Positions 22,963-38,585 of a DNA stretch of 64,000 bases are shown here, in pieces. The translations under genes were made by a program, and so were the position numbers. Numbering within the stretch: the stretch's first letter is position 1; each line of letters starts with the position of its first letter. Source of the stretch: an uncultured Gemmatimonadota bacterium (GTDB lineage: Bacteria > Gemmatimonadota > Gemmatimonadetes > Palauibacterales > Palauibacteraceae); NCBI GenBank assembly GCA_964607465.1, contig CAZSKS010000001.1, forward strand, positions 44,420-108,419, in the 5' to 3' direction. The notes below the pieces were generated by a model. It was not told the origin of the DNA, searched no databases, and saw only the letters and a list, made by a program, of their open reading frames with translations.

Positions 22963-23669
22963 GTCCGCGCGAGCCGACGTCCACCTCCCCCACCGGGCCC
23001 CGGGTCGTCTGCAAGATCGGGGGCTCCCTGCTGGATGGAGGATGGGCCCCGGACCTCGTGGCGGCCCTCCGGCGCGCGGCGCCGGGCCTCGGGATCCTGG
23101 CGGTGCCCGGCGGCGGGAGGGCGGCCGACCGCATCCGCGCCCGCTACCTCCGGGGGAAGCTGGACCTGTCAGAGGCCCACTGGGCCGCCATACGGGCGCT
23201 GGACGCCAACGCCCTGCGTCTCGCCGGGGGCTGCGGGGCCGAGCTCCCGGTGGTCACGGGCCCCGAGGCGTGGGGCGCGGGCACCGGGCGGTACGCGGAC
23301 CGGGGCCCGGGCGCCGGCGGTCGGCTGGCCGTGCTGGCTCCCTTCCCCCTGCTCCGCGCGCAGGACCCCCTGCCCCACGGCTGGGAGGTGACCAGCGACA
23401 GCATCGCCGCCTGGGTCGCCGACCGGTGCGGCGCCTCCCGCCTGCTGCTGCTGAAGGCCCGCGGGGACCGCCGCCCCCCCGGCCCGGACGGCCGGGCGGC
23501 CCGGCTGTCGGCCCGCCGCGCCGGCGACCGGGGCCTCGTGGACCGCCACCTCTCCAGCCTGCTCCGGACGGCCGCCTTCCGGACCTGGATCGTGAACGGC
23601 CGTCACCCCGATCGGCTGCTGGCCTTCCTCACCGGCGACGGGACGGCCGCGACCCCTCTCCTGCCCTGA
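22959..23669 (+). CDS. amino-acid-kinase-fold protein, MfnE-like candidate
   Basis: VVCKIGGSLLDGG...LAVPGGGRAADRIR...VTSDSIAAWVA...LLLLKA are AAK-fold motifs. The GTG start overlaps the upstream stop. Confidence 0.7.
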   Translation: MSPREPTSTSPTGPRVVCKIGGSLLDGGWAPDLVAALRRAAPGLGILAVPGGGRAADRIRARYLRGKLDLSEAHWAAIRALDANALRLAGGCGAELPVVTGPEAWGAGTGRYADRGPGAGGRLAVLAPFPLLRAQDPLPHGWEVTSDSIAAWVADRCGASRLLLLKARGDRRPPGPDGRAARLSARRAGDRGLVDRHLSSLLRTAAFRTWIVNGRHPDRLLAFLTGDGTAATPLLP

Positions 23670-24160
23670 CCCCGCATCGCCGACGTCCCGGCGGAAGCGC
23701 ACCGGTCCAGGAGTGAGTCGGCCGCCGCCAGGATCCTGTCCGACGGATCCCGCTGCCGCCGGGTTCGGCCCCGCCGGTCGAAGAACTCGTGGAAGGTCCG
23801 GGCCTCGACGGCGAGGGCGGCCGCCCCCGGCTCGGCTTCGGCCCGCTCCACCGTGAGCTGGCCGACGGCGCGCTGGAAGCTGGGGCCCGACCGTCGCACC
23901 GAGCGATCCGTCCGCTCCAGCACCACCCGGTGGTCCGACCGGTCCACGGAGACGGCCTCGAAGCCCATCTCCTCGCCTTCTTCGAGCGAGCAGTCGATGG
24001 CCCCGGACAGCGAGCCGACCGGGGCGGAGCGCACGGCGGTCCGGCTCGCCCCGCACGCCGCGGCCAGCATCAGCACCAGCAGGACCATGGCCCCCGGCGT
24101 CAGCCATCCCGTGCCCCGAGGACGGGCGCCGGCATCACCTGGAGAAGAGACGTTGATCAT
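23603..24160 (-). CDS. hypothetical lipoprotein
   Basis: Signal peptide plus lipobox (MVLLVLMLAAAC-G). Its 3' end overlaps the convergent kinase-fold gene by 67 nt, so the C-terminus is doubtful. Confidence 0.4.
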   Translation of the reverse strand: MINVSSPGDAGARPRGTGWLTPGAMVLLVLMLAAACGASRTAVRSAPVGSLSGAIDCSLEEGEEMGFEAVSVDRSDHRVVLERTDRSVRRSGPSFQRAVGQLTVERAEAEPGAAALAVEARTFHEFFDRRGRTRRQRDPSDRILAAADSLLDRCASAGTSAMRGQGRRGVAAVPSPVRKASSRSG

Positions 24161-24274: not shown

Positions 24275-25477
24275 TCAGAAGAAGAGCATCAGGCCGCCCG
24301 AGAGGACGATGGAGCTGTTCTTCTCGGTGGCGTCCACGTCGTCGTCGGACCACGTGTAGCTGCCTTCGCCGACCACCATCAGCGACTCGGTGGCCTGGGC
24401 GTAGATGCCGCCCGTGAGCGAGCTGTTCGAGGTCTCGAACTCGGGCTCGTCGTCGGCCGCCTCGATGATGCTCTCACCGTAGCTCAGCCCCAGCGTCACG
24501 TCGCTACCCTCGGGGGTCACCGTCGCCTGCCCGATGTACCCGTAGCTGGGACGCAGGTCGGTCGAGCCCGTGGCGCTCCGGGCGCCGGCGAACATCAGCG
24601 TGGTGCCGATGCCGGTGCCGTAGTAGCCCGAGCCCGTCAGCGAGAAGACCTCGCCGCCGTACTGCAGGCCGCCCGAGATGCCCGCCGACGTGGCCGACTC
24701 GTCGAGGTCGGTGTCCTTCTGGGTCTGCAGGAGCCCGCCGGCCCAGAACATCACGTCACCCGAGCTGTAGGTGAACTCGCTCTCCAGGCGCGGCAGCGTC
24801 GTCTCGTCGAAGCCGTTGTGCGTGTCAGGATCGAACAGCGCGACCGTGAACTGCGCCGGGTTCTCCGAGGGCGTGCTGTAGGCGATCTGGGCGTTGAAGT
24901 TCGGATACACGTAGCCGAACCCGATCCGGCCCAGCGTGGTGCCGCCCGGATCGGCGAAGTTGCCGCCCGTGGCGCCGACCCCGGTGAGGGTCATGTCGGT
25001 GAGGATGTTCTGCCGCTGGAACACGCCGATGGCGCGGCCGGCCAGGATCTGGCCGAAGTCCCCGCCCACGGTCATGTAGACCTCGCGCATGTCGATCTGC
25101 GCGCCGGCCTGGGTGCCGTTGCCGAAGTTGTCGTGCCCGCCGGGCGTCTGGATCTGCGGCGCGAAGCCGAAGTGGACCCCGAGATCGAGCCCGCCCTCCT
25201 GGCCGTTGGCCTCGAAGGTGGCGAAGGTGGGCAGGAGACCCGTCCGCACCGTGCTGCCCTGGGCGTCCGTCCCCACCAGGGCGAACGGGCTCCCGATCTC
25301 GCCGTCCTCCGACGCCGACTCGAAGACCCAGAACGCGTTCACGTTGCCCGTGAACGTGAACGACCATCCGTCGTCCGCCGTCACGGTCACCTGGGCGTCG
25401 GCCGGCTGCGTTCCCAGCAGCAGGAACATGAAGCAGGCCGCGACGATCGCCAGCAAGCTCTTGTTACGCAATGACAT
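24275..25477 (-). CDS. outer-membrane beta-barrel porin
   Basis: Signal peptide MSLRNKSLLAIVAACFMFLLLGTQPADAQ, alternating beta-strand pattern, and a C-terminal ...GGLMLFF aromatic terminus. SD is AAGGAGG. Confidence 0.75.
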   Translation of the reverse strand: MSLRNKSLLAIVAACFMFLLLGTQPADAQVTVTADDGWSFTFTGNVNAFWVFESASEDGEIGSPFALVGTDAQGSTVRTGLLPTFATFEANGQEGGLDLGVHFGFAPQIQTPGGHDNFGNGTQAGAQIDMREVYMTVGGDFGQILAGRAIGVFQRQNILTDMTLTGVGATGGNFADPGGTTLGRIGFGYVYPNFNAQIAYSTPSENPAQFTVALFDPDTHNGFDETTLPRLESEFTYSSGDVMFWAGGLLQTQKDTDLDESATSAGISGGLQYGGEVFSLTGSGYYGTGIGTTLMFAGARSATGSTDLRPSYGYIGQATVTPEGSDVTLGLSYGESIIEAADDEPEFETSNSSLTGGIYAQATESLMVVGEGSYTWSDDDVDATEKNSSIVLSGGLMLFF

Positions 25478-25669: not shown

Positions 25670-27847
25670 TCATCCGCCGAAGCCGCGCCGGACCACGATC
25701 CGGAACGACCGCGGGGTCACCGGGGTCATGAAACGGTCCAGCTCTTCGGTGAGGCCGTTCTCGTTGAAGGTGCCGAAAGTGGCCGCGTCCGAGTCGAACA
25801 CGTTGCTGACGATCCCCTGGACGGTCCAGTCGCCGAAATCGTAGGCCAGCCGGGCGTCGGACAGGAAGTAGGAGTCCAGCGGGTCGGTCTCGTTCGCCTC
25901 GTCCCCCCGCATCCACTGCTCGCCGAAGAACCGGGCGTCGACGCCCGCCGTGAACCCGTCGAGGAAGTGGAGCCTGCCGCCCGCCTTGAGCTGATGGGAG
26001 GGGACCAGCGGGAGCTCGTCCCCCGCCTGGACGTCGTTGGGACCGGCCAGGGGATGGCCGTCGAACTCCTCGTCGGCCCGGATGCTGAACAGCTCGGGGG
26101 CATCCGACTGGAAGGTGGCGTGCGTGTAGGCGTAGTTGAGGTACATGCTGCCGCGGTCGCCGACGAGGGTCTGCATCGACAGCTCGACCCCCTCCCTCCG
26201 GGTGTCCTCCAGGTTGGCGAAGAAGCCCTCCACCAGGCTCTCCTCCGACGCGATGAAGAAGATCTCGTTCTCCACGTCCGTGGTGTAGAGGGAGGCGGTG
26301 AGGACCGCCGGACCCGCGGCCCACTGTCCCCCGACCTCGTAGGTGGTGGCCTTCACGGGATCCAGGGGCGGATCGTCCCCCAGCGCGAAGGGAAGCGGGC
26401 AGGCGTCCTCGGGATCGGCGCACGCCAGCTCGAGGATCGCCGGGGCCCGGAAGCTGGTGCCCACCGACGCGTAGGCCGACGCGCCGCGTCCGAGATCGAC
26501 GCTGATCCCGCCCCTGGGGCTCAGCTCCCGGAAGGTGCTGGTCGTGTCGGCCGTCGGATCCAGCCGGTTCTCGAAGGGGACGCGGACGTGGTCGTACCGC
26601 GCGCCGCCCGACAGGATGACGCGTCCCAGCTCGACGTCGACCAGGCCGTAAGCGGCCAGGTCCAGGCTGGGGCTCCCCACGTCCGTCGTGAGGTTCGACT
26701 CGTCCGTGCCCCGCGGCTCCTCGAAGATCCGGATGTCCGACCAGCTGGCCGTGCCGTCCACGCCGAACCGGACCCTGAGCGGGAGCTCCCCGATCCGCGC
26801 CGGATGACGGAGGTCCGCCGTGCCCCCGACCGAGTGGTTCGTGGTGAGCTGGCGGACGTCCGCCTCGGGGGGCTGGTTGACGTTGAAGCGCTCGGCCTCG
26901 GATCGCCGGTAGTAGAGCGTGCCCGAGCCGCGGCCCTCGCCGACGGGCACGTACCCGGTGCCGGAGAGCTGCTGGAGGTTCAGGTCCTCGAAGTCACCGG
27001 CCGTGAAGTTCACCTCCGGATCCATCCGGAAGATGCTCAGCGGCAGGGACCCGGCGGTCTCGGCCCGGGACGTCGAGGCCAGGCCCTGGAACGCGATGCC
27101 CCGCTCCGGACCCCGGTGGTCGACGTTGACGAACCCGTTGTAGCCCTCGGCGGAGGTGGCCTCGCGCCAGCCGTCCATCCGCTCGTATCCGCCGGCCGCG
27201 TAGTAAGACCAGCCGTCCACGGCGCCGCTGATCGCCCCCTCCGCGGACGCTGTGCCGTGGGAGCCCCCCGTCACCTCGAGCTCCCCCTCCGTGGCCCGAT
27301 CGCCCCGCTCGGTGATGAGGTTGATGGCGCCCCCGAGGGAGTTGGGCCCCAGCAGGGATGCCGTCCCCCTCAGCACCTCCACCCGCTCCACGTGCTCCAG
27401 GGGGAGGAGGTCGAAGTTCACCTCCTGGGCGTCGGGCTCGTTCTGCCGGATGCCGTCCAGGAACACCGTGATCCCCGGTGGGAGCCCCACCGTCGGTCCC
27501 ACGTTGAAGCCCCTGGCGCTCACGTTGATCTTGAAGGGGGAACCGAGGTCGTCATAGGAGGAGATCCCCGGCTCCCGGACGAGGGCGTCCGAGAGGAGCG
27601 CGGGCTCCCACGCCTCGATCTCCTCCCCCTCGATGGTCGTCACGCGGGCGGGGACGCCCGAGCGGACGTCCGGCCGGGCGGTGGGGACCACGGAGGTGAC
27701 CACCTCCAGCGGTTCGATCTCCACCACCGTGGTGTCCGACGGCACGGTGTCGGCCTGCTGCGCCGCCGCCCCGGCGGGCAGCGCCCCGGCCAGCAGGCAG
27801 CACGCGACGAGCGCGAGCGAGCAGCGGATCGTATACGACGTCGACAT
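25670..27847 (-). CDS. TonB-dependent receptor (TBDR-1)
   Basis: Signal peptide, then a plug region (ARVTTIEGEEIEAWEP...LVREPGISSYD..., VFLDGIRQNEPDAQEVNFDLLPLEHVERVEVLRGTASLLGPNSLGGAINLIT) and a long barrel. No N-terminal signalling extension is seen. SD is GGAAGGAG. Confidence 0.9.
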   Translation of the reverse strand: MSTSYTIRCSLALVACCLLAGALPAGAAAQQADTVPSDTTVVEIEPLEVVTSVVPTARPDVRSGVPARVTTIEGEEIEAWEPALLSDALVREPGISSYDDLGSPFKINVSARGFNVGPTVGLPPGITVFLDGIRQNEPDAQEVNFDLLPLEHVERVEVLRGTASLLGPNSLGGAINLITERGDRATEGELEVTGGSHGTASAEGAISGAVDGWSYYAAGGYERMDGWREATSAEGYNGFVNVDHRGPERGIAFQGLASTSRAETAGSLPLSIFRMDPEVNFTAGDFEDLNLQQLSGTGYVPVGEGRGSGTLYYRRSEAERFNVNQPPEADVRQLTTNHSVGGTADLRHPARIGELPLRVRFGVDGTASWSDIRIFEEPRGTDESNLTTDVGSPSLDLAAYGLVDVELGRVILSGGARYDHVRVPFENRLDPTADTTSTFRELSPRGGISVDLGRGASAYASVGTSFRAPAILELACADPEDACPLPFALGDDPPLDPVKATTYEVGGQWAAGPAVLTASLYTTDVENEIFFIASEESLVEGFFANLEDTRREGVELSMQTLVGDRGSMYLNYAYTHATFQSDAPELFSIRADEEFDGHPLAGPNDVQAGDELPLVPSHQLKAGGRLHFLDGFTAGVDARFFGEQWMRGDEANETDPLDSYFLSDARLAYDFGDWTVQGIVSNVFDSDAATFGTFNENGLTEELDRFMTPVTPRSFRIVVRRGFGG

Positions 27848-27882
27848 CCCGGGCTCCTTCCTGGTTCGTTGGCATCGTCTCG

Positions 27883-28857
27883 TCATCGGTTCGCCCCGTC
27901 CTCCCGGTCCTCCTCCAGGGGGGTGGTGCGGATGGCCCGCAGCCGGTCGCCGGGACTCAGCCGACCGTCCCCCGTCTCGTCCTCGTAGAGCACCGCCAGG
28001 GCCACGCGCTCCCCGTCGCCCGCCAGCACGAAGATCCCGTCGTCGGCGCGGGGACCGCCGTCCAGGTCGGCGCAGCAGCGATCCAGCTGGCGGACGCCGT
28101 GCGACGACCCGTTCGGAGCCCGCGGCGCGGGCTCGCCGTCCACGACCGTCCGGAGCAGATCGCCCTCGGAGAAGCTCCCCGTCCCGTCCCGGTCCTCGTA
28201 GATCCAGAAGCTGACGACGGCCTCGCCCTGCCCCGCCACGACGCGCACGCCGTCGTCGGCGGGCCCCCCGCCGTCGTAGTCCAGGCAGCAGAAGTCCCGG
28301 AGCACCGCCGGTCCCCGCGCCGAGGCGAAGCGGGCCGCCCCCGGGACGGGGCTCCGGCAGGCGAGCCGATCTCCCTCTCGGCCGCAGCGCAGCCCGCGAC
28401 CCTCCGTCTCCCCGAGCCCCGACACGCCGGTTCCCAGCGCCAGCACCCGTGCGTCCGGCCCCCACCGGAGGGCGAACCGCTGCTCCGTCTCCGCCTGCGG
28501 CCCCGCTTCCGGCGCCGCCGTCCGGGCGGGCGCCGCCCCGTCGCCCCCACCCCCGGGGCCGGCCCGCGCCAGGAGCCCGACGGCCGCGATCAGGACGAGC
28601 ACGGCGGCGGCGCGGACGGCGTCCCGCGGGGCCGCCCGACGGCGGAACCACGAGCGCCGATCCCCGGCCCGGGTTCCGGCCTCCCGGTCCTCTCGGGGCA
28701 GGGCCTCCAGCACCTCGGCCTCGAGCCCCGACCGGGGGGGATCGAAGCGGGCTCGACGGAGCCGCTCATCGATTTCGCGCAGCTCCGGAGGGAGCCCACC
28801 CTCGGGCCCCTCCGACGTCCCGTCGCCGCCGTCTCCCGGCCGTCCGTCCTCGGTCAT
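27883..28857 (-). CDS. membrane-anchored anti-sigma factor candidate with duplicated periplasmic CC/EF-hand-like module
   Basis: It lies downstream of the ECF sigma gene on the same strand. It has an acidic cytoplasmic N-terminus, one TM helix (AVRAAAVLVLIAAVGLLA) and a periplasmic region containing two copies of a roughly 57-aa module. The start is ATG 28857 (SD GAGG) or GTG 28902. Confidence 0.6.
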   Translation of the reverse strand: MTEDGRPGDGGDGTSEGPEGGLPPELREIDERLRRARFDPPRSGLEAEVLEALPREDREAGTRAGDRRSWFRRRAAPRDAVRAAAVLVLIAAVGLLARAGPGGGGDGAAPARTAAPEAGPQAETEQRFALRWGPDARVLALGTGVSGLGETEGRGLRCGREGDRLACRSPVPGAARFASARGPAVLRDFCCLDYDGGGPADDGVRVVAGQGEAVVSFWIYEDRDGTGSFSEGDLLRTVVDGEPAPRAPNGSSHGVRQLDRCCADLDGGPRADDGIFVLAGDGERVALAVLYEDETGDGRLSPGDRLRAIRTTPLEEDREDGANR

Positions 28858-29000
28858 GGATGCCTCGTCGCGGGCATGAGCCTCTACCGGCGTGTCCCTC
28901 ACCTTCTCACCCCGACATTCGCCCGCGGCGAGGGGATCGTTACACGGACGTGGAAAACCGTCGGGAGAGGGGAGGATCCGGCGAGGGGGGAGATCCCGCG

Positions 29001-29056
29001 GGAAGAGGAAGGTGTGAAAGGGGGAGAGGGAGGAAGGGGAAGGGAGTGGAACAGGG
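29001..29056. repeat. homopurine/homopyrimidine tract between the sigma and anti-sigma genes
   Basis: The plus strand GGAAGAGGAAGGTGTGAAAGGGGGAGAGGGAGGAAGGGGAAGGGAGTGGAACAGGG has 4 pyrimidines in 56 nt by my count. The flanking 28963-29000 is also purine-biased. The transcript strand is therefore CU-rich with repeated CCUCC/CUCCC. Confidence 0.85.
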
Positions 29057-29078
29057 CCGCGAAAAGCGGTCCCGGGCC

Positions 29079-29699
29079 CTAGCTGCCCTCCAGCTCCTCC
29101 CGCAGGGCCCGCAGGACGCGGTGGAGGCGCGTCCGCACGGCAGCCGGCGAGGTCTCCAGGAGGCGGGCGATCCTCCGGCTGGACAGCCCGGCCCCGTAGG
29201 CCAGGGCCACCAGGTCGCGGTCGGCCCGGGGGAGCTCCCAGACGGCCTCCAGGAGCCGTCGGCGCCGCTCCTCCCGGAGGGCCTCGTCCTCCGGGCTCGG
29301 TCCGGGCGCCGCCAGACCCTCCAGGTCCGTCGGGTCCAGGGCCTCCGGGTCCCGTGCCCTCCTCCGACGCTCGCGGCGCAGCACGTTCCGCGCGATGCCG
29401 AGCAGCCACGACTCCACGCTCCCCCGCTCCGGATCATAGTCGTCGCTGGAGCGCCACGCCTCGAGGAACACGTCCGACACCACGGCTTCGGCGGACGCCC
29501 GGTCGCCCGACCGCCACCGCGCGTAGCGGTACACCCGATCCGCGTGGCGACGATACCAGAAGCGGATCGTCTCGACGGAAGGATCCCCCCCGGGGTGCGA
29601 CCCGCCCGGATCCGCCCGGGAGGGGGACGACGCGGAACCCTCGCCGCGTCCCGGAGCGGGCTCCGGGCCCTGGCCGGGCCGGCGGCCGGAGTGGTTCAC
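29079..29699 (-). CDS. ECF (sigma-70 family group IV) sigma factor
   Basis: Region 2 (RFWYRRHADRVYRYARWRSGDRASAEAVVSDVFLEAW...ESWLLGIARNV) and region 4 (LPRADRDLVALAYGAGLSSRRIARLLETSPAAVRTRLHRV). No start codon is available between V23 (GTG 29699) and region 2, so the N-terminus carries a low-complexity extension. Confidence 0.85.
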   Translation of the reverse strand: MNHSGRRPGQGPEPAPGRGEGSASSPSRADPGGSHPGGDPSVETIRFWYRRHADRVYRYARWRSGDRASAEAVVSDVFLEAWRSSDDYDPERGSVESWLLGIARNVLRRERRRRARDPEALDPTDLEGLAAPGPSPEDEALREERRRRLLEAVWELPRADRDLVALAYGAGLSSRRIARLLETSPAAVRTRLHRVLRALREELEGS

Positions 29700-29721
29700 G
29701 CGGCGCGCGGGACCGGGGCCC

Positions 29722-30300
29722 TCATCCCGTGGGCAGGAGCCAGCGATGCAGCGCGGCGACCGCACGGGGGAGGATGACGTCGCGCTGGCCCTTCAGCTCG
29801 ATGGCCTCCTGGCCCACGACCTTCCCCGAGGCCACGTCCTCGTGCTCCACCACGAGGTACCAGATCAGGTTGCTCACCTTGATGACTCGACCCCTGAAGA
29901 CGTGCTCCACGCCGGCGGAGCGCGCGGCCTCCCGGGCGCAGGCTCCGCTGTCGCAGCCGGTGCTTCCGGACCGGACCCGGGACCGGGCTTCTTCGAACTG
30001 CTCCATCGTCACCAGCGTGAACCGCCCGTCGTCCTGAAGGCGCTCCCGGAGCATGCGGGCCGCGTCGATGGCCACCCGGGTGATCTCCTCCCCCTCCTCG
30101 TCCGGGTTGACGCTCTTGTCCAGGGTCTGGAAGTCCAGCACCAGCACCTTCTGTCGATCGGCCGGATCGGGGGACCCGTCCGTCGATGCCGGAGCCTGCT
30201 GACCCGTGGCCGGGACCGGCACGGACGCCAGGGTCAGGAGGATGCCTACGGAGAAGACGGCCTGGGGGATCGAACGCACGGCGAACCGGGAGAGCTTCAT
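29722..30300 (-). CDS. secreted protein of unknown function (DUF3280/DUF2380-like by memory)
   Basis: Signal peptide MKLSRFAVRSIPQAVFSVGILLTLASVPVPATGQQ, then VLVLDFQTLDKS..., GCDSGACAREAARSAGVEHVFRGRVIKVSNLIWYLVVEHEDVASGKVV. It is the first gene of the sigma/anti-sigma/TBDR-1 string. Confidence 0.6.
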   Translation of the reverse strand: MKLSRFAVRSIPQAVFSVGILLTLASVPVPATGQQAPASTDGSPDPADRQKVLVLDFQTLDKSVNPDEEGEEITRVAIDAARMLRERLQDDGRFTLVTMEQFEEARSRVRSGSTGCDSGACAREAARSAGVEHVFRGRVIKVSNLIWYLVVEHEDVASGKVVGQEAIELKGQRDVILPRAVAALHRWLLPTG

Positions 30301-30369
30301 CTCGATGACCTCCTGTGAGCCACGTCCTCCGTCGGTGACGGCGCTTCGTTCGCGACCGGGACGTGGCGC

Positions 30370-30398
30370 TTGGCTTTTAGCTACGGGTATTATAAAAT
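30370..30398 (+). promoter_or_regulatory. candidate promoter for TBDR-2 inside an AT-rich patch (TTGGCT-17-TAAAAT); a TATAAT on the opposite strand overlaps it
   Basis: TTGGCT at 30370-30375, a 17-nt spacer, then TAAAAT at 30393-30398. The minus strand reads TATAAT at 30394-30389, facing the secreted-protein/sigma operon. Confidence 0.35.
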
Positions 30399-30494
30399 TC
30401 GTTGGTGGGGGACGGCCAGCCGTCCTCCGCGCGGCGGAGTCGCCCTGTGTCGCACAGCCAGCTTTCGAACACGACGAGAGCAGGAGAACGGAAA

Positions 30495-32669
30495 GTGCTT
30501 CGACCCCACCGAGCCTTCCATCGTCGACAGGTATCTACCCTTCCCGACCGCGATGGGTTCGGGAGCCCGGTCCGCACCGTTGCCACGGCCCTGGTGGCGG
30601 TGGTGACGGCGGCGCTCGCCGGGGCCTGGGTCGCCCCCCTGGAGGCCCAGCAGGAGGACCTCCCGGCGGCCGACACCGTCACGCTGGAGGAGCTGACGGT
30701 GACGGTGACCCGGGTCGAGACGGAGATCCAGCGGGCCCCGGAGACGGTCTCGGTGCTGGGCGCGGAGACCGTGACGCAGGGGGAGCGGGGGGTCTCCCTG
30801 GAGGAGGCGCTCCGCCACGTGCCGGGCGTCTACGTCCAGAACCGGAGGAACTTCTCCCTCGGCGACCGGGTGACCGTGCGGGGCGTGGGAGCCAGGGCCC
30901 AGTTCGGCGTCCGCGGGGTCCAGATCCTCATGGACGGGATCCCGCTCACCATGCCCGACGGCCAGGCCGTCGTCGATCCCGTGGACCTGAACGCGGTGGG
31001 ACGCGTGGAGATCATCCGGGGTCCGGCCTCCACCCTGTACGGCAACGCGGCCGGGGGGGTCATCAGCTATCAGACCCGGGATCCGTGGCGCGGATCGTTC
31101 CGGACCGAGCCCGACGTGAGCTTCGGGAGCCATGGCTACCAGAAGTCCGTGATCGGAGCCTCGGGCACCTCGGGCGATCTCGGATGGCGGCTCTCGGCCC
31201 AGCGTATGGAGACCGACGGCTTCCGGCGGAACGCCGGAGCGGAGGTCTATCACGGCAACCTGGTCACCGACGTCGGGCTCTCCGAGGACACCCGGCTGAC
31301 CGGCATCGTGAACGTCTTCCACACCCCCTTCGCGGAGAATCCGAGCGGGCTTACGCGCAATGACGCCATCGAGAATCCCACGATGGCCCGTGACCTCATC
31401 GTTCAGATGGGGGCCGGCCAGGAGACCACCCACGGACAGGGGGGGCTCGCCCTGGACCACCGCTTCAGCGAGGACCACCGGATGAAGCTCGCCGGCTGGA
31501 TGACGCTGCGGGACATCCGAAACCCCATCCCCTTCCGCATCATCGACCTGGACAGGACCGCGGGCGGCGTCCGCTCCCAGTACGAGGGAAGCACCCGCAT
31601 GGGCGACGTTCCGGTCCGGTGGGCGACGGGCGTGGACGTCGGAATCCAGAGCGACGACCGAAGGGAGTTCGTGAACGAGCAGATCGGGTCGGGCGACCGG
31701 GCCCGGGCCGGTGACCTGCTGCTGGACCAGCGGGAGCGGGTGACGAGCTTCGGCCCCTTCGCGCGGATCGACCTGGATCTCCTGCCACGATGGCGTCTCA
31801 CGCTGGGGGGACGCTACGATCGCTTCGAGTTCGACATCGAGGACCGCTTTCTCGAGGACGGGGACGACTCCGGCGACCGCACGCTGGAGGAGTTCAGCCC
31901 CATGGTCGGGCTGACCTATTCCCCCCATTCGGCCCTGAGCATCTACGGCAACTACGCGACCTCCTTCGAGACCCCCACCGCCAGCGAGTTCTCCAACCGG
32001 CCGGACGGCAGCGGCGGGCTCAACCCCGAGCTCGGCGCCGCGGACACCGACAGCTACGAGCTCGGCGTGAAGGGGTGGTCCGAAGAGGCGGGCATCCAGT
32101 ACGGGCTCGCCGTCTACACGGCCGACGTGAGCGGCGCCCTGGTCCCCTTCTCCGATCCCACGGAGCAGATCTTCTTCCGCAACGCCGGCGAGATCTCCCG
32201 TACGGGCGTCGAGACCAGCCTGGCTTGGAGGCCGACGTCCTCCCTCCAGTGGCGGCTCTCCCATACGTACCAGGACTCCGAGTTCGAGGAGTTCACGCCG
32301 GAGGGCGAGGACTTCAGCGGGAACCGCGAGCCCGGCGTGCCCGAGCATCAGCTCACCGCGGGGGTCAGCTACACGGCGCCCTTCGGGCTCACCTCGGAGG
32401 CGGACGTCCGTTGGGTGGACGCCTATCCCGTGAACGACGCCAACACCGCCTCCAACTGGGCCCACAGGATCGTGGACTTCCGCTTCTCCATGGACCGGCC
32501 GATCGACCTGGGGAGGACCGGCCTGCACCCCTTCCTGGGGATCGACAACGTCTTCGACGAGCGCTACAACGCCGGGGTGACCCCCAACGCGTTCGGGGGT
32601 CGGTTCTACGAGCCCGCTCCCGGCACCACGGTGTACGGCGGCCTGTCGGTCTCCCTCTCCTACCGCTGA
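30495..32669 (+). CDS. TonB-dependent receptor (TBDR-2)
   Basis: Signal peptide (...VATALVAVVTAALAGAWVAPLEAQQ) and plug (VTVTRVETEIQRAPETVSVL..., QILMDGIPLTMPDGQAVVDPVDLNAVGRVEIIRGPASTLYGNAAGGVISYQT). GTG 30495 with an upstream GGAGAA was chosen; the ORF opens at 30402. Confidence 0.88.
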   Translation: MLRPHRAFHRRQVSTLPDRDGFGSPVRTVATALVAVVTAALAGAWVAPLEAQQEDLPAADTVTLEELTVTVTRVETEIQRAPETVSVLGAETVTQGERGVSLEEALRHVPGVYVQNRRNFSLGDRVTVRGVGARAQFGVRGVQILMDGIPLTMPDGQAVVDPVDLNAVGRVEIIRGPASTLYGNAAGGVISYQTRDPWRGSFRTEPDVSFGSHGYQKSVIGASGTSGDLGWRLSAQRMETDGFRRNAGAEVYHGNLVTDVGLSEDTRLTGIVNVFHTPFAENPSGLTRNDAIENPTMARDLIVQMGAGQETTHGQGGLALDHRFSEDHRMKLAGWMTLRDIRNPIPFRIIDLDRTAGGVRSQYEGSTRMGDVPVRWATGVDVGIQSDDRREFVNEQIGSGDRARAGDLLLDQRERVTSFGPFARIDLDLLPRWRLTLGGRYDRFEFDIEDRFLEDGDDSGDRTLEEFSPMVGLTYSPHSALSIYGNYATSFETPTASEFSNRPDGSGGLNPELGAADTDSYELGVKGWSEEAGIQYGLAVYTADVSGALVPFSDPTEQIFFRNAGEISRTGVETSLAWRPTSSLQWRLSHTYQDSEFEEFTPEGEDFSGNREPGVPEHQLTAGVSYTAPFGLTSEADVRWVDAYPVNDANTASNWAHRIVDFRFSMDRPIDLGRTGLHPFLGIDNVFDERYNAGVTPNAFGGRFYEPAPGTTVYGGLSVSLSYR

Positions 32670-32939: not shown

Positions 32940-33482
32940 ATGGCTTCTGGCCAGGCAGGTACATCAGGAATGCGTCACCCGGAGCGGTGGCTGGCCGCGC
33001 TGCGGATCGGCGTCGGCCTGTGGTTCCTGAAGGGGATCCTCACCAAGGTCAGCTTCACCCTGGCGGGCGGCTTCGTACCGTTCCTGGAGGCGAACGTCCG
33101 GTGGACCCGGGTGATGCCCATCATCGTGAACAACTTCGCCTCCGAGCACCCGGTGGAGTGGTACGGCGCCTTCCTGGTGGACACGGTCGTCGCCAACCCG
33201 GAGCTCTTCGCCAATCTGACGGCGCTGGGGGAGACCGCGGTGGGCGTGGGGCTGTTGCTGGGGATCGCTACGCGGCCGGTGGCCCTCCTCGGGCTCTTCA
33301 TCATGGCCAACTACGGCCTGGCCAACTACTGGACCGGCTTCTCCCAGCAGGGATTCCACGCCCTGCTGGTCCTCAGCATGCTGGCCTTCGCCGTGGCCGG
33401 CGCCGGCCGCGTCTGGGGCGTGGACGGCTGGCTGCGGGACCGTTATCCGGACAGCTGGTTCAGCCGCAGCTTCCTGGGCTGA
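32940..33482 (+). CDS. DoxX-family membrane protein
   Basis: WLAALRIGVGLWFLKGILTK..., ALGETAVGVGLLLGIATRPVALLGLFIMANY show the DoxX/DoxD pattern. An alternative start is M11 (32970). Confidence 0.78.
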   Translation: MASGQAGTSGMRHPERWLAALRIGVGLWFLKGILTKVSFTLAGGFVPFLEANVRWTRVMPIIVNNFASEHPVEWYGAFLVDTVVANPELFANLTALGETAVGVGLLLGIATRPVALLGLFIMANYGLANYWTGFSQQGFHALLVLSMLAFAVAGAGRVWGVDGWLRDRYPDSWFSRSFLG

Positions 33483-33488: not shown

Positions 33489-34499
33489 CTACGGGCCGCC
33501 CGCTTCGGTCCCAACGGCGGGCCCCGGCGTGATGGCCACCCCCCAGGGGAGCTCGCCCACCGGGATCCTGGCGACCTCCTCCAGCGACTCCGTGTCGATC
33601 ACCGACACGTCGCCGCTCTGCCCGTTGGCGGAGTAGAGCCGGCTGCCGTCGGGCGTCAGGTCGATGCCCCAGGGACGCTGGCCCACCGCCACCTCGGCCA
33701 CCGTCTCCAGCGACTCGGTGTCGAAGACGACGACCCGGTCCGCCTCCCCGTCGGCCACGTACACGCGGGCTCCGTCCGGCGAGACGACGACCCCCACCGG
33801 CTTCGCGGACTGCCCCCCCTCGCCCACCAGCAGGGTCTCGACGACCTCGTGGCTCTCCACGTCCACCACCGACAGGTCGCCGCCGACCTCGCCGGACACG
33901 TAGGCGCGGGAGCCGTCCGGGGAGAAGGCCACCCCGCGCGGCCGGTTGCCCACCCGGAAGCTGCCGGCCGTCTCCCGGTTCTCGGTGTCGATGACGGTGA
34001 TGGTGTGGCTGCTCTCCGAGGTGACGTAGACCCACCGGCCGTCCGGGCTCACGCCCACCCCCTCGGGCTCGATGCCCACCTCGTAGGTCTCCGTCACCTC
34101 GCCGCTGGCGATGTCGATGGACGAGGCGGTGCCCACGTCCTCGTTGGAGACGTAGATCGTGCTGCCGTCGGGGCTCACCGCGAACTGCTCGGGGTCCGAG
34201 CCGGCGTCGATCTTCTTGAGCACCTCGTTGGTGGCCACGTCGATGACGGCGATGGCGTCCTCGTTGCTGACCGCCACGTAGATGCGGTCTCCGTCGGGGC
34301 CGGCCTGGATGCCCCGCGGCCGGTCACCCGCCGGGACCGTGGCCACCACCTCCTCGGTCACCGTGGAGATCACGCTCACGTCGTCGCCCGCCTCGTTGCT
34401 GACGTAGGCCAGCGGACCCTCGGGAATCGACTCCCCGCAGCCGAGGAGGAACAGCGATCCGAGCAGCAGCGGGGCGGTCAGCCATCTTCGGAGAGACAT
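33489..34499 (-). CDS. YVTN-repeat beta-propeller lipoprotein (PQQ-dehydrogenase-associated type)
   Basis: Lipobox LFLLGC-G. Six or seven repeats of the P.G...SPDG...YV.N.....V.VID type, and the C-terminal PWGVAI typical of the propeller genes found next to quinoprotein dehydrogenases. SD GAGGTGA precedes ATG 34499. Confidence 0.85.
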   Translation of the reverse strand: MSLRRWLTAPLLLGSLFLLGCGESIPEGPLAYVSNEAGDDVSVISTVTEEVVATVPAGDRPRGIQAGPDGDRIYVAVSNEDAIAVIDVATNEVLKKIDAGSDPEQFAVSPDGSTIYVSNEDVGTASSIDIASGEVTETYEVGIEPEGVGVSPDGRWVYVTSESSHTITVIDTENRETAGSFRVGNRPRGVAFSPDGSRAYVSGEVGGDLSVVDVESHEVVETLLVGEGGQSAKPVGVVVSPDGARVYVADGEADRVVVFDTESLETVAEVAVGQRPWGIDLTPDGSRLYSANGQSGDVSVIDTESLEEVARIPVGELPWGVAITPGPAVGTEAGGP

Positions 34500-34607
34500 C
34501 GTCGTCACCTCGTCGTCGAAGGTTCGATCTGCGTCATGGACCTCGTGTCCCGAGTTCCGGGAGACCGCACGGATCCGCTCCCGTGAGCGGGAACGGCCGG
34601 GCCCGCG

Positions 34608-35975
34608 TCAGGCGGTCGCCTCTCCCGCGCTACCGAGGCGGCAGCCCGCCTCGTCGCGGGTGCGTCCGAGCATCCCGAGGCGGTCGACCAGCTCCTGGGA
34701 GACGAACTGGTCGTCCGCGGTCACGGGCCGACCGATCACCTGGTAGGGGTCCGCCACCGAGTCGCCCACCGACGGGTGGAGCACGTACATGCCCTGGCCC
34801 ATCTGGTGGTTCCAGGGGCGGAAGGAGAGGGGGGGACCCTTGTAGCCGTCGAAGGCCACCTCCTGCTCCAGGCGCTCCACCAGGCCCCGGCCCTCCTCCC
34901 GGGGCGGCGACACCAGGAGGTCGCCCAGAAGCTTGACCGCCGTCCAGTTGGCCCAGCCCTGCGGTCCCATGGGCCGGTCGAAGGCCTCCCGGTAGCGGTT
35001 GTTCAGCTCGCGGGCCCCGAACCGGAACAGGCCGGAGTGCCACAGGCTGGGCCAGAACGCCGCCGGGGACGCTTCGTCCCCGTACCGCAGGGCGTCGGCG
35101 AAGGGGAGCGCCAGGTCTGCGCCGGAACCCTCCTCGCGATGGACCTCCAGGAGTCGGACGAGCCGCTCCCCCTTCACGATGCCCAGCACGGCCCACGGAT
35201 CGCCGGCGAGCGCCTCCCGGAGCGCCCCGGCCGGGTCCCCCTGCTCCGGATCGATCTCCGTGCTGCCCAGCAGCTCGCCACCGGCCCGCTCCAGCGTAGC
35301 CCGGGCACGGTCGTGCAGCCGGCGTCCCTGGGACGTGCCCTCGTACAGGACGTGCCAGCGCCACAGCTCCTGCCGCTGACCGATGAAGTTCACCAGCCCC
35401 TGCCTCGCCCGCCGCACGAGCCAGTGGACCGTGGCGTCCACGTACATGGTCTCGCTGGCCTGGACGTGGAACGTGGAGGGGGAGCACGCCTCCCCCCGGA
35501 AGCGGTCGGCGTCGGAGCCGACGTTCAGGAAGGGCACGCCCAGACGATCGGCCGCCTCCATGAGGACCGCGCACGCCTCGTCCCCGATCCCGCCGACGAC
35601 GGCGGAGGCCCCGCGGTCCACCAGGCGCTCGGCGCCCCGCACGGCCTCGTCCGGCGTGTCGGCGGTCTCCTCCAGGAGCTCGAAGGATCGATCCAGCAGC
35701 CGGGCTGCCCGTCCGGCGTCCTGCGCGCCCAGCCGGGCGCCCCGCAGCGCCGCGCGGCCCATGCCCCCCATCGGTCCGTCGCTCGGCGCCACGTGGCCGA
35801 CACGGATGGGGGCCTCCTGGGTCCCCGCGTCGATGCCCGCGAGGAGCTCCCGCGCGGTTCCCTCCCGGCCGACCAGGGCGCGGGCTCCCGGCAGGAAGAA
35901 GAGGGCGGACGTCGCCCCGGCCGCCGCCAGGAAGCGGCGACGGCTGAGGAGCGAGCCGGGCCTATCCTCCCTCAT
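34608..35975 (-). CDS. LivK-like periplasmic substrate-binding protein with Tat signal (PQQ-dehydrogenase-associated type)
   Basis: Tat-type signal SRRRFLAAAGATSALFFLPGARA, then IRVGHV.P..G..G......GA.LG... and a type-I periplasmic binding-protein pattern. No permease or ATPase genes are adjacent. Confidence 0.8.
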   Translation of the reverse strand: MREDRPGSLLSRRRFLAAAGATSALFFLPGARALVGREGTARELLAGIDAGTQEAPIRVGHVAPSDGPMGGMGRAALRGARLGAQDAGRAARLLDRSFELLEETADTPDEAVRGAERLVDRGASAVVGGIGDEACAVLMEAADRLGVPFLNVGSDADRFRGEACSPSTFHVQASETMYVDATVHWLVRRARQGLVNFIGQRQELWRWHVLYEGTSQGRRLHDRARATLERAGGELLGSTEIDPEQGDPAGALREALAGDPWAVLGIVKGERLVRLLEVHREEGSGADLALPFADALRYGDEASPAAFWPSLWHSGLFRFGARELNNRYREAFDRPMGPQGWANWTAVKLLGDLLVSPPREEGRGLVERLEQEVAFDGYKGPPLSFRPWNHQMGQGMYVLHPSVGDSVADPYQVIGRPVTADDQFVSQELVDRLGMLGRTRDEAGCRLGSAGEATA

Positions 35976-36810
35976 CGTCGTCCCACCGCGCCCGGTCCAC
36001 GTTCTCCGCCTCTTCCAGGCCACGGATCTCCTCCCGCCCCTTGATCGAGCGCAGGTCCGCTCCCGCCAGGTCCGCCCCCTCGAGGCGGACGCCGGAGAGG
36101 TCGGCCATCCACAGGTCCGCTCCCGAGAGGTCCGCACCCCGGAGGTCGCCCCGGACGAGGATCGCCTTCCGGAGGTTGGCGTCCGTCAGCCTCACGTTCC
36201 GGAGGTCGGCCCCGGTGAAGTTGGTGTTCATCAGGCCCATGGGCTGGTTCCCGGGATCGGCCCCGAGGTTCGCGCCGGAGAGATCCGCCCCCGTCAGCGT
36301 CGAGCCCTCGCCCGCGACGATGAGGCGCGCACCCGACAGGTTCGCCTCCGTCAGGTCGGCCTTGCGGAGGATCACCGCGTACAGGCTGGCGCCCGACAGG
36401 TCCGCCCCTCGCAGCACGACCTCGCTCAGGTTGGCCTTGTCGAGGTTGGCGTCGGAGAGGCCGGCGCCCGTGAGGTCGGCTCCGGTGAGATCCGCCCCGA
36501 ACAGGCGGGCCTCCGTCAGGTCCGCCTCCCGGAGGCGGGCGCCGGAGAGGTCGGCATGGGTGAAGTCGAGCCCCGACAGGTCGAGGCCGGAGAGGTCGAG
36601 CCCCGACAGGTCGGCGGCCTCGTTCCCGGCCGTCGCCGCGAGCCGCTCCCGGACCTCCGAGGCCGACATGTCCTGGCCGGCCAGGGCGCCCGGCCCGCCG
36701 ACGGCCGTGAGGAGCCCGGCGAGCAGCGCCCCTGCGACCGCGCCTCCACCCGCCCCCCGGCGGCGGGACCGCCGGGAGGCGACCTCGACCGGCCCGGGGC
36801 CCTGGTTCAC
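35962..36810 (-). CDS. pentapeptide-repeat protein with N-terminal export-like signal
   Basis: More than 30 consecutive A(D/N)LxG-type pentapeptides (ADLSGLDLSGLDLSGLDFTHADLSGARLREADLTEARLFGADLTGADLTGAGLSDANL...). The N-terminus is VNQGPGPVEVASRRSRRRGAGGGAVAGALLAGLLTAVGGPGALAGQD. GTG 36810 is 1 nt after the upstream stop, and the 3' end overlaps the next gene by 14 nt. Confidence 0.8.
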   Translation of the reverse strand: MNQGPGPVEVASRRSRRRGAGGGAVAGALLAGLLTAVGGPGALAGQDMSASEVRERLAATAGNEAADLSGLDLSGLDLSGLDFTHADLSGARLREADLTEARLFGADLTGADLTGAGLSDANLDKANLSEVVLRGADLSGASLYAVILRKADLTEANLSGARLIVAGEGSTLTGADLSGANLGADPGNQPMGLMNTNFTGADLRNVRLTDANLRKAILVRGDLRGADLSGADLWMADLSGVRLEGADLAGADLRSIKGREEIRGLEEAENVDRARWDDDEGG

Positions 36811-36811
36811 G

Positions 36812-38422
36812 CTACCCGTCCCGGCAGTGCGTGGCGCTGTCGACGACCGCCGCTTCGGCCCGATCGGCCCCGGGGTCCGTCGGCTCCGTGGCGGGCTCGT
36901 CGCGCTCCGACGGGGCCTCGTCACCCTCCTGCGCGGTCCGGTCCTCCTCCTGGCCCTCGTCTCCCTCGGCACCGTTCCCGTCCTCCTCGGACGGGGCCTC
37001 GTCGGCCGGCGGCGCCTCGGGTCGGCCGGCGGGCAGGCCCTCCGTCCGGGCCGCGATGTACTCGTAGATGGCGTTGGCCTTCTCGTCGTCGAGCAGCGCG
37101 TTCCAGGCCGGCATCCCCTTGTCGGGCCGCCCCTGCATGACCGTGATCGTGAAGCTGTCCTGCGTGAACCCCTCCCGGTTCACGGCCTGCAGCAGGCCCG
37201 GGGCGATGGTCGACCCCGTGCCCGCCTCGCCGTGGCAGCGGACGCAGTGGACCATGAACTGACGCCAGCCCGTGTAGACCGTCTCGCTCACCGGCGTGTC
37301 CTGCGCCGTCGCGGGCGGGGCGTGGACGAGATCGGCCGGGGAGACCGCCGCCAGCGCGCCGCCGGCGGACGGTGCCGGAGAGCCGCCCCGGGACGCCACC
37401 TCCGCCCGCGGACCGCCTCCCGCGCCGTAGGGGCTGCCGAGAGAGGCGGCGGGACCGGTGCTCCCCCGGGTGCTCTCCCGGCGCCCGTCGTCCCCGCCGG
37501 AGGCGTCCTGTCCTCCGCGCTCGATGGGCAGGAGGGGGACGTGGAATTCCTCCTCCAGGATGCGGTAGATCTCCTCCTGGTTCTCCTCGATGACCCTCTC
37601 GAGCCGGGCCTGCCACTCCCCCTCACCGCGGCGGACCCCCAGGGACATGTTGTAGGCCAGGGGGAAGCCCGTGCTGTCGTCCACCGCCGGCAGGGCCTTC
37701 ATCTCGAGTGCGACGTCCTGGCGCTGGCTCCAGTAGCCGGCCACCGGCCCCCACACGATGGCCAGCTCCACGTCACCGTTGGCCACCGCGTACACGATCT
37801 CCTTCGGCGGGCTGTCCTCGTCGTAGTCGCCGTAGACCGTGAAGCCCTTGACGTTGCTCACGATCCCCCGGGCTCCCAGCGCGTGGGCCGGCGGGGGGTT
37901 CATGTAGTCGTCCCCGATCAGGTTCACGCCGATCTGCAGGTCCCGCAGGACGGGATCGTCGAGGGAGCTCACCTCGAAATCGGCGTCGGCCCGGTAGAGG
38001 AAGACGTAGGGCGAGCGGTAGAACGGCGCGGTGGACTGGAGGATGTCGTAGCCCTCGGGCACGCCGAAGATGACGTCGCACTTGTTCTCCTTCAGCGTGT
38101 TGCGGACGAAGCCGCGGTGCTGCCGCCACCAGGTGTAGCTGACGGAGGAGAGCCCCATCTCCTCGGCGAACAACTCGGCCAGCCGGTTGTGGAATCCTTC
38201 CTCCGCCCGGTTGGAGAACGGCAGGTTGTTCGGGTCGGCGCAGACCCGCAGCTCGTCCGCCTCCTGGAGCGCCGTCGCGTTCGCGTCCGGCGTCGTCTCG
38301 GCCGCCTCGGCTGGCAGGTGCGCTCCCTGCTCCGGCATCTGTGCCACGCCCAGCCCGGAGACGATCCCCAGGACGAGGACGGCGACTCCGGCGTACAGCT
38401 TATCTCCCATGGTCGTCACCAT
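36812..38422 (-). CDS. XoxJ/MxaJ-like periplasmic binding protein fused to a C-terminal monohaem c-type cytochrome and an acidic tail
   Basis: The N-terminal domain (LRVCADPNNLPFSNRAEEGFHNRLAELFAEEMG...YTWWRQHRGFVRNTLKENKCDVIFGVPEGYD...APFYRSPYVFLY) is MoxJ-like. A roughly 75-aa Gly/Ser/Ala linker follows, then CVRCH (Cys codon 37246-37244) and KGMPAW (Met ligand), then a roughly 65-aa D/E-rich tail. It is one uninterrupted frame. The start is ATG 38422 or 38410. Confidence 0.8.
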   Translation of the reverse strand: MVTTMGDKLYAGVAVLVLGIVSGLGVAQMPEQGAHLPAEAAETTPDANATALQEADELRVCADPNNLPFSNRAEEGFHNRLAELFAEEMGLSSVSYTWWRQHRGFVRNTLKENKCDVIFGVPEGYDILQSTAPFYRSPYVFLYRADADFEVSSLDDPVLRDLQIGVNLIGDDYMNPPPAHALGARGIVSNVKGFTVYGDYDEDSPPKEIVYAVANGDVELAIVWGPVAGYWSQRQDVALEMKALPAVDDSTGFPLAYNMSLGVRRGEGEWQARLERVIEENQEEIYRILEEEFHVPLLPIERGGQDASGGDDGRRESTRGSTGPAASLGSPYGAGGGPRAEVASRGGSPAPSAGGALAAVSPADLVHAPPATAQDTPVSETVYTGWRQFMVHCVRCHGEAGTGSTIAPGLLQAVNREGFTQDSFTITVMQGRPDKGMPAWNALLDDEKANAIYEYIAARTEGLPAGRPEAPPADEAPSEEDGNGAEGDEGQEEDRTAQEGDEAPSERDEPATEPTDPGADRAEAAVVDSATHCRDG

Positions 38423-38585
38423 CTGCCTCTCGCTCTGCCTGTCGTGGAGTGATCGTGTCGTCATGAAGGTACCCGCTGCGGGCGGGTTTGCTCCGGGATG
38501 TGCCCTCCGCCCGCGGAGGCCGGTCGACCGGCCCCGGCCTTCCTCGCAATAAAGTAGTAGCTGGATGGCGGGCGTGCACACGAAA

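Follow-up and report, generated by a model that had tools for sequence, protein, structure and literature searches.

What does an extracytoplasmic function (ECF) sigma factor, encoded with a membrane partner and two TonB-dependent receptors, do beside a lanthanide-type xoxF gene? The genes in question lie in a stretch of 64,000 nucleotides, here called the window, from an uncultured Gemmatimonadota bacterium (contig CAZSKS010000001.1 of assembly GCA_964607465.1, positions 44,420 to 108,419). Its G+C content is 73%, real genes were recognised in it by a third-position G+C above 0.85, and its nearest public sequences are Gemmatimonadota metagenome-assembled genomes. The initial annotation read five genes at 25670-32669, encoding a DUF3280 protein, the sigma factor, a putative anti-sigma of 324 amino acids (the partner) and the receptors TBDR-1 and TBDR-2, as a single locus for the sensing and uptake of a metal, possibly a lanthanide. 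All five genes are present, as judged by Pfam and NCBIfam domains (the partner being without a match), but they fall into two units: TBDR-2, by homology a PqqU-type importer of pyrroloquinoline quinone (PQQ), has a predicted sigma70-like promoter of its own, and the ECF-type promoter stands only 5' of the partner gene. We give an even chance to the explanation that two acquisition units for the XoxF holoenzyme lie here side by side, one a PQQ importer and the other an ECF-controlled probable lanthanide receptor. Coordinates are given in Table 1; labels such as L001 denote the related loci or contigs that were compared with the window.

TBDR-2 and its control region

TBDR-2 matches the PqqU model NF041535 over its full length at 348 bits, far below the equivalog cut-off of 1200 bits; because that cut-off was set for close orthologues, the score is no argument against membership of the wider PqqU family. 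Residues 103-751 of TBDR-2 align to residues 35-696 of Escherichia coli PqqU, or YncD (PDB 6v81 and 9c4o), with an E value of 2.4e-78. The family, which is reported to be widespread in Gemmatimonadetes, was defined in the description of the PqqU-PQQ complex by Y99 (or F or W), R304 and R365 (PMC12124388). In TBDR-2 the position of Y99 is occupied by phenylalanine and that of R365 by R420, identically in both alignments that we made, and the equivalent of R304 is R370 in two alignments and R360 in one larger MAFFT run. K274 is replaced by Q or E and R536 by Q, at positions described as less conserved (PMC12124388). A Pfam search of the receptors and the partner, with an E limit of 0.01, found no STN or other signalling domain in TBDR-2. 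We conclude that TBDR-2 is, as predicted from homology, a PQQ importer of the PqqU type and not a metal receptor. It resembles PqqU of E. coli in its full-length alignment, in the three signature residues and in adjoining a PQQ enzyme cluster, and differs in being paired with a DoxX-family gene (found at the same position in L001) and in diverging from the DUF3280 gene across a conserved control region.

The AT-rich promoter patch that the initial annotation had placed at 30370-30398 was recovered as a sigma70-like promoter, TTGGCT-17-TAAAAT, on the plus strand and pointing at TBDR-2. It is the sole match in 23.3-33.6 kb, where 0.2 would be expected by chance. The control region as a whole has a mean column identity of 78% over the window, L001 and L003, and a similar TATAAT patch is found in that of L102. 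We also note that the 5' leader of TBDR-2 (30400-30494), which contains the hairpin listed in Table 1, is strongly kept in L001 and L003; it may act as an operator or as an RNA element of the leader. An Rfam scan of 22.5-41.5 kb returned one sub-threshold small-RNA match only and no family for this leader.

On the other side of the control region, the DUF3280 gene keeps its position in L001, L003, L011 and L102, and this gene for an exported protein is probably co-transcribed with that of the sigma factor. Apart from PF11684 the protein has only a weak LpoB-like similarity, and searches of the PDB, the literature and plasmids for DUF3280 gave nothing informative.

A sigma, partner and TBDR-1 module of Gemmatimonadota

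The sigma factor of the window has only the sigma-2 and sigma-4 regions (Sigma70_r2, PF04542, E 9e-17; Sigma70_r4_2, PF08281, E 2e-10; TIGR02937, 95 bits with a cut-off of 43) and is thus an ECF (group IV) sigma-70 factor; no subfamily model matched it at that model's own cut-off. Its start is uncertain: GTG at 29699 is the favoured codon, with alternatives at 29765 and 29576; the upstream region was aligned with that of L001, and homologues are called at 205-260 amino acids in L003, L101 and L102. An SRPBCC/Polyketide_cyc2 gene, absent from the window, lies on the opposite strand just 5' of the sigma gene in L002 (87-515), L003 (2285-2713) and L101 (3-218); MxaD, a protein of methanol oxidation, has a fold of the same family.

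Relatives of the 324-amino-acid partner were sought in a scan of one genome per species, and 80 loci were fetched for comparison of gene neighbourhoods. The scan returned 125 relatives, all from Gemmatimonadota and representing at least 125 species. When clustered at 90% the relatives number 589, and at 50% there are 161 representatives among 1.84 billion proteins; all the named ones are from Gemmatimonadota, and a Pfam domain occurs in none of them. Nearly all of the 80 loci have the genes for the sigma factor, the partner and TBDR-1 side by side, and in 65 of them the partner start overlaps the sigma stop by 4 nt. The clade of the window differs in having a long-form partner of about 320 amino acids and a gap of 170-400 nt after the sigma gene (221 nt in the window, where 35 nt separate the partner gene from TBDR-1). 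Some Gemmatimonadales have the sigma/partner pair duplicated in tandem or carry two TBDR-1 paralogues (L062 1722-4089, L070 6135-8359, L048 13282-15474 and L080 10421-12562).

The module is accompanied by a promoter of ECF type. The sequence GTGAC-N16-CGTA, with an invariant spacer, stands about 90-105 nt 5' of the sigma gene in 67 of 70 loci and, in a dyad search, never on the opposite strand. Its strict form occurs 77 times in 1.23 Mb of loci, against some 6-7 occurrences estimated by chance from base composition, and 70 of the 77 are 5' of module genes. In the window and its close relatives no intergenic site of this family-wide form was found, whether by position weight matrix or with up to two mismatches, except for a one-mismatch site in L003. 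Alignment of the sigma/partner gaps instead revealed a clade variant, TCCAC-N5-GTAACG-N16-CGAA(T/C), which resembles the family-wide form, is the sole conserved block in an otherwise divergent gap and is common to eight loci (the window, L001, L002, L003, L011, L100, L101 and L102). GTAACG-N16-CGAAT has one exact match in the 64-kb window, directly 5' of the partner gene; with up to two mismatches there are four matches in all, three of them with two mismatches, which against a shuffle mean of 4.4 is the level of chance. The window search found no such site at xoxF, TBDR-2 or the DUF3280 gene, and with a single site the recognisable target of the sigma factor in the window is the partner/TBDR-1 unit alone. 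In three further loci (L042 9724, L046 9736 and L056 1771) GTGAC-N16-CGTA stands directly 5' of the partner gene, with no detected sigma gene before it, an arrangement resembling the rewired order of the window's clade. L048 has an extra site (12321) 5' of a gene for a 220-amino-acid protein and of the second TBDR-1 paralogue.

An adjoining cognate membrane partner and an ECF-type -35/-10 promoter together mark this as an ECF system, and both the module and its promoter are well supported. It is specific to Gemmatimonadota and constitutes an undescribed ECF/anti-sigma family; a literature search for ECF sigma factors with TonB receptors in Gemmatimonadetes found no papers. The initial annotation was right as to the genes and too narrow as to the extent, in that the minus-strand unit runs about 2 kb past 25670 to take in a porin-like protein (24275-25477) and a small exported protein (23603-24160). 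Neither has a match in Pfam. The porin-like gene is kept 3' of TBDR-1 in L001, L002, L009 and L100, and the small exported protein has homologues in the same position in L001, L002 and L009 with 46-81% identity.

TBDR-1 and its relatives

TBDR-1 likewise has no STN domain (PF07660) at the limit given above, and its plug begins about 30 residues after the signal peptide. Among solved structures its best match is to the plug of PqqU only (73 bits, E 1e-19), and its similarity to all receptors of known structure is low. It does not match the PqqU signature, with V at the position of Y99 in 57 of 63 orthologues and I or V at that of R365 in 61 of 63. According to a preprint of July 2026, validated lanthanide TonB-dependent transporters resemble PqqU, are without the PQQ-binding residues, and occur in Gemmatimonadetes and near pqq genes; Asp-rich small periplasmic partners are predicted next to them (10.64898/2026.07.10.737718). 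The predicted features of TBDR-1 are those that the preprint describes: it is PqqU-like overall and the PQQ-binding residues are absent.

Relatives of TBDR-1 outside the phylum are few. Only 39 of 72,556 plasmid and chromid records match at E 1e-10, and in 8 of 11 inspected contexts a gene for a PQQ-dependent alcohol dehydrogenase (PQQ-ADH), a pqq gene or a lanmodulin gene lies within 8 kb. In Methylobacterium nodulans a lanmodulin with four EF-hands of the form DPDxDGT(L/V)D is encoded two genes downstream of the relative; pqqBCDE and genes of the tetrahydromethanopterin (H4MPT) pathway are nearby in Paraburkholderia, PQQ-ADH and pqq genes in B. multivorans and B. cenocepacia, and PQQ-ADH clusters in Ralstonia, Variovorax, Sphingobium and Novosphingobium. 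The three contexts without PQQ-linked genes within that distance are those of Ideonella, Caballeronia and Methylocalor. The Burkholderia and Caballeronia receptors have small hypothetical genes next to them, which were considered and rejected, having no acidic motifs and no similarity to the anti-sigma domain of the partner.

Summed bit scores between the TBDR-1 family and the PQQ-ADH/lanmodulin-associated group average 226, and each of the two averages about 80 against the PqqU group. TBDR-1 scores 244 bits against the lanmodulin-adjacent receptor of M. nodulans; its identity to the relatives from PQQ-ADH, pqq and lanmodulin loci is only 26-32%. The plug motif (S/G)PxxGxP is common to TBDR-1 and the PQQ-ADH/lanmodulin-associated proteobacterial receptors. 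The porin of the window, moreover, is 32% identical (E 1e-38) to a porin adjoining a related receptor in the ped-type clusters of Sphingobium pSRL2 and Novosphingobium ES2-1. By similarity, then, TBDR-1 appears to group with receptors of proteobacterial PQQ-ADH, pqq and lanmodulin loci, a set equated with lanthanide receptors in the 2026 preprint. It is probably a member of the LutH-like lanthanide receptors, and that it transports lanthanides seems to us an evenly balanced proposition. The idea of a lanthanide uptake locus thus holds up in part, through TBDR-1 and its bit scores, and not for TBDR-2.

The 324-amino-acid partner

The partner consists of a conserved cytoplasmic N-terminal segment of about 45 residues, an Arg-rich stretch, one transmembrane helix, a clade-specific insert and a C-terminal domain that, following a single helix after a cytoplasmic segment, must be periplasmic. 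Few parts of the protein are as well conserved as the cytoplasmic segment (consensus LxxLDxxLRxVRFxPRxSLxxE). The periplasmic domain (residues ~180-324) is made of two repeats of the form CCxDxDGGGxxDDG ... YEDxDGxGxxSxGD. Each repeat begins D-x-C-C-x-D-x-D-G-G-G-x-x-D-D-G, Y-E-D-x-D-G-x-G-x-x-S-x-x-D ends one of them (or, in the long form, both), and the invariant Cys-Cys pairs amount to four cysteines in all.

The partner carries invariant acidic loops that resemble those of EF-hands. In the window two 12-residue loops have EF-hand spacing, DRDGTGSFSEGD and DETGDGRLSPGD, and positions D1, D3 and D12 are invariant in 123 sequences. The loops follow the EF-hand/DxDxDG pattern (acidic or polar residues at 1, 3, 5, 9 and 12, glycine at 6 and a hydrophobic residue at 8), but the helix-loop-helix context of an EF-hand is missing, since an AF2 model of the periplasmic domain, with two four-strand beta repeats, puts them between beta strands. 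On this model they would be DxDxDG-type loops in a beta scaffold, not true EF-hands, and they are of the kind predicted to bind Ca2+ or Ln3+.

No Pfam or NCBIfam model matches the partner, and searching the PDB with a profile returned nothing up to E 10. Foldseek comparison of two AF2 models of the periplasmic domain with the PDB gave best E values of 0.1-0.25 and TM scores of 0.34 or less, and the modelled fold looks new. The Pfam search found no FecR domain (PF04773) and no zf-HC2 match; the HxxxCxxC zinc anti-sigma motif is absent, residues 1-85 being without Cys or His. With no STN domain in either receptor, the description of the locus as being of a non-FecIR type is borne out.

Discussion

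We propose that the XoxF holoenzyme may be provided for by two units. In the first, TBDR-2 and the DoxX-family protein, read from the sigma70-like promoter, would scavenge the cofactor PQQ. The second would comprise the ECF sigma factor, its single-pass partner and TBDR-1, followed by the porin and the small exported protein, with the ECF-type promoter driving the partner, TBDR-1 and probably the two genes downstream. We infer that the partner keeps hold of the sigma factor by its short, conserved N-terminal segment in the cytoplasm. Its periplasmic domain, in which both beta repeats have a pair of vicinal cysteines, a DxDGGGxxDDG loop and an EF-hand-like loop of 12 residues, would bind a hard cation that has reached the periplasm, most likely a lanthanide; occupancy would then set the amount of free sigma factor and hence of TBDR-1, itself most likely a LutH-like lanthanide importer. 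Because TBDR-1 is without a signalling domain, sensing would be periplasmic and direct and not relayed from the receptor. The direction of control is probably repression by metal: lutH adjoins lanmodulin, and its promoter is repressed fourfold by La (PMC7391723). While homology identifies the first unit and the anatomy of the second can be read from its sequence, lanthanide sensing by the partner is a matter of reasonable inference. The full proposal, that the partner is the first lanthanide-sensing anti-sigma, whose beta domain binds Ln3+ and gates an ECF sigma factor setting the expression of a LutH-like importer, we offer tentatively, as possible but less likely than not.

Comparison with known systems shows how such a circuit would differ from them. 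LutH of Methylorubrum extorquens is a lanthanide TonB-dependent transporter (PMC7391723, PMC6850437). TBDR-1 is like it in being PqqU-like in the plug, in having no PQQ-binding residues and in being closest to receptors of lanmodulin, PQQ-ADH and pqq loci. It differs in that LutH has no sigma/anti-sigma neighbours (Ochsner 2019), whereas TBDR-1 is tied to the ECF pair throughout its order, and in that no lut-type ATP-binding cassette transporter or lanmodulin adjoins it. The nearest case that our literature searches returned is mluARI, a putative FecIR-type trio proposed for uptake of the lanthanophore methylolanthanin (PMC11317620); a sigma/anti-sigma lanthanide sensor of the present kind was not found in them, as the initial annotation had supposed. 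Like FecI-FecR-FecA and mluARI, the Gemmatimonadota module encodes together an ECF sigma factor, a single-pass membrane partner and a TonB-dependent receptor, with the receptor gene under the promoter of the sigma factor. It differs from them in that TBDR-1 has no signalling domain and the partner no FecR domain, so that sensing would be independent of the receptor N-terminus.

A functional parallel may be the CnrH-CnrY-CnrX system of Cupriavidus metallidurans, an ECF system that senses Ni/Co in the periplasm. Its sensor, CnrX, is a protein distinct from the anti-sigma CnrY, and the system controls an efflux pump. CnrY sits in the membrane and binds the sigma factor by a very short segment in the cytoplasm, and the ECF sigma factor is released on the metal signal. 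The two systems would share sensing of metal in the periplasm, a short cytoplasmic anti-sigma segment and release of an ECF sigma factor, and they would differ in that sensor and anti-sigma form one chain in the Gemmatimonadota module and the output is an importer; no similarity in sequence between them was found. The known lanthanide sensors are two-component systems in a few Proteobacteria, and we know of no regulator identified behind the metal repression of lutH-type receptors.

Several points count against the proposed explanation as a whole. The model of the periplasmic domain has only moderate confidence (pLDDT 74, pTM 0.62), the acidic loops would fit Ca2+ equally, and the invariant cysteines could point to a redox or soft-metal signal. 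The placing of TBDR-1 among the LutH-like receptors rests on proxies, that is, on lanmodulin-adjacent and PQQ-ADH-adjacent receptors and not on validated lanthanide transporters, and a neighbour-joining tree, with saturated distances and bootstrap values below 40%, did not group TBDR-1 with the LutH-like receptors. In the loci compared, moreover, most copies of the module are far from any xoxF. About 75 orthologous modules in other Gemmatimonadales stand among housekeeping genes with no PQQ enzyme or xoxF within 10 kb, and among the 80 loci no xoxF, TBDR-2, DUF3280, porin or PedA-like gene lies within that distance of the module outside the window's clade and L079. The usual neighbours elsewhere are genes for acyl-CoA dehydrogenase, electron transfer flavoprotein, isocitrate dehydrogenase and an aminotransferase, which we considered as members of the system and rejected as housekeeping synteny.

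This conserved setting is what would be expected if the second unit were a general metal or siderophore uptake system of Gemmatimonadales, for Fe, Cu, Ni or Ca, with no lanthanide role and with its proximity to xoxF an accident of rearrangement. We regard this explanation as unlikely, and as the most serious of the alternatives. Automatic annotation gives the name 'iron complex outer membrane receptor', the Ideonella relative is in a nickel/copper-type context (beside a nickel transporter and MbnP), and the invariant Cys-Cys pairs would suit a soft metal. Against it, the relatives outside the phylum are very strongly tied to PQQ-ADH, pqq and lanmodulin loci, the porin is shared with ped-type clusters, and the similarity of TBDR-1 to every receptor of known structure is low. 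Moreover, the distant L079 (receptor identity 33%) again has, at 9118-14761, the genes for the sigma factor, the partner and a TBDR-1-like receptor followed by a PqqU-like gene. There the module adjoins genes for a short-chain dehydrogenase/reductase, a DUF6513/pterin-binding protein and a chorismate-binding protein, families that also occur within or next to the window's H4MPT island and xoxF cluster. We note that the PqqU-like receptor gene of L079 is seemingly frameshifted.

Quite unlikely, in our estimate, is that the partner serves as a metal-binding chaperone, anchored in the membrane and acting in the periplasm, which would receive the cation from TBDR-1 and hand it on, the sigma factor being regulated otherwise. 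The partner has no recognisable anti-sigma domain in the searches described above and its binding to sigma is only predicted; in the window's clade its gene is distant from that of the sigma factor and close to TBDR-1, three loci have the partner gene and TBDR-1 with no sigma gene upstream, and Asp-rich periplasmic partners are predicted beside lanthanide transporters (10.64898/2026.07.10.737718). However, sigma/anti-sigma genes are usually arranged as they are in the 65 loci where partner start and sigma stop overlap by 4 nt, and a purely periplasmic chaperone would have no need of so well conserved a cytoplasmic segment. Classical FecA-FecR-FecI cell-surface signalling, with the loaded receptor signalling to the anti-sigma, is hardly credible. 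The gene order resembles that of Fec-type loci, and a trio of that type is proposed for lanthanophore uptake (PMC11317620), but an STN domain is absent from both receptors, the stretch between signal peptide and plug is of only about 30 residues, and no FecR domain is present.

If the partner does sense lanthanides, the module would be an ECF-based lanthanide homeostasis circuit across Gemmatimonadales, distinct from the two-component 'lanthanide switch' of Proteobacteria. Bacterial lanthanide sensing and the limitation of lanthanide uptake are largely open matters, for which the module is a testable candidate with four handles: a candidate sensor domain of about 145 residues with invariant ligand-like positions, a sigma factor, a promoter (GTGAC-N16-CGTA or GTAACG-N16-CGAAT) and an output gene. 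The phylum is a major one in soil, and at least 125 of its species have kept all four. The locus also shows a XoxF-using lineage of Gemmatimonadota in which a receptor for scavenging PQQ and a probable metal receptor are kept beside the enzyme. Should the ligand prove to be something else, the module would still represent an ECF/anti-sigma family not described before.

Genes of the window

The flanking H4MPT island and lanthanide-type xoxF reported by the initial annotation were both confirmed (Table 1), xoxF lying 11 kb from TBDR-1. Besides xoxF, its cluster encodes a fusion of a MoxJ-like protein and a cytochrome c, a pentapeptide protein, a PedA1-like binding protein and a PedA2-like beta-propeller.

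Table 1. Features of the unit around the sigma factor and of its surroundings in the window
Feature	Position	Strand	Remarks
H4MPT island (fae, mtdB, ftr, mch, others)	6.8-22.9 kb		
Small exported protein, 185 amino acids	23603-24160	-	Open reading frame of high third-position G+C; hydrophobic N-terminal segment ending AAAC; last gene of the TBDR-1 unit
Porin-like outer-membrane beta-barrel, ~400 amino acids	24275-25477	-	Signal peptide; C-terminal ...LMLFF
TBDR-1, TonB-dependent receptor, 725 amino acids	25670-27847	-	Plug and barrel
Putative anti-sigma (partner), 324 amino acids	27883-28857	-	Single-pass membrane protein
ECF-type promoter candidate GTAACG-N16-CGAAT	28917-28943	-	TCCAC before it; ~60 nt 5' of the anti-sigma ATG
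ECF sigma factor	29079 to ~29699	-	Regions 2 and 4 only; low-complexity N-terminal extension
DUF3280 protein	29722-30300	-	PF11684, E 1.2e-19, 71.4 bits against a gathering threshold of 30.1; N-terminal signal-like segment
Conserved divergent control region	30301-30494	.	TATAAT/TAAAAT patch 30370-30398; TBDR-2 leader with hairpin GACGGCTGGCCGTC
TBDR-2, predicted PqqU-type TonB-dependent PQQ importer	30495-32669	+	GTG start after a GGAGAA ribosome-binding site
DoxX-family membrane protein	32940-33482	+	PF07681, PF04173; 3' of TBDR-2
Lanthanide-type XoxF cluster	33489-40632	-	TIGR03075, TIGR03871, TIGR03863, TIGR03866
xoxF	38695-40632	-	Lanthanide type: best PDB matches XoxF 6dam, 4mae, 6oc5; DEWDYDG motif

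Within the XoxF cluster, a single open reading frame on the minus strand (36812-38581) combines a MoxJ/XoxJ-like periplasmic binding protein (TIGR03871) with a c-type cytochrome domain matched by methanol-related cytochrome models, and appears to be a XoxJ-XoxG fusion. At 33489-36137, on the same strand, the PedA2-like beta-propeller (TIGR03866) and the PedA1-like binding protein (partial TIGR03863) have no adjoining ATP-binding cassette permease or ATPase. No PQQ biosynthesis genes were found among the open reading frames of the window that were tested.

Two further regions of the minus strand deserve mention. At 3262-6447 a Molybdop_Fe4S4 open reading frame and a large molybdopterin oxidoreductase open reading frame share one frame, with a single TGA between them at 5881-5883 (...QARI-TGA-HSSTVPGLGTSFGRGGATT); the whole looks like the selenocysteine-containing alpha subunit of an enzyme of the formate dehydrogenase type, with 4Fe-4S and NrfD-like partners downstream. 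Lastly, 51381-62028 holds two SusC/SusD-like pairs (TonB-dependent receptors with CarboxypepD_reg, together with SusD-family proteins), which in a genome of such high G+C content fits a Gemmatimonadota origin.

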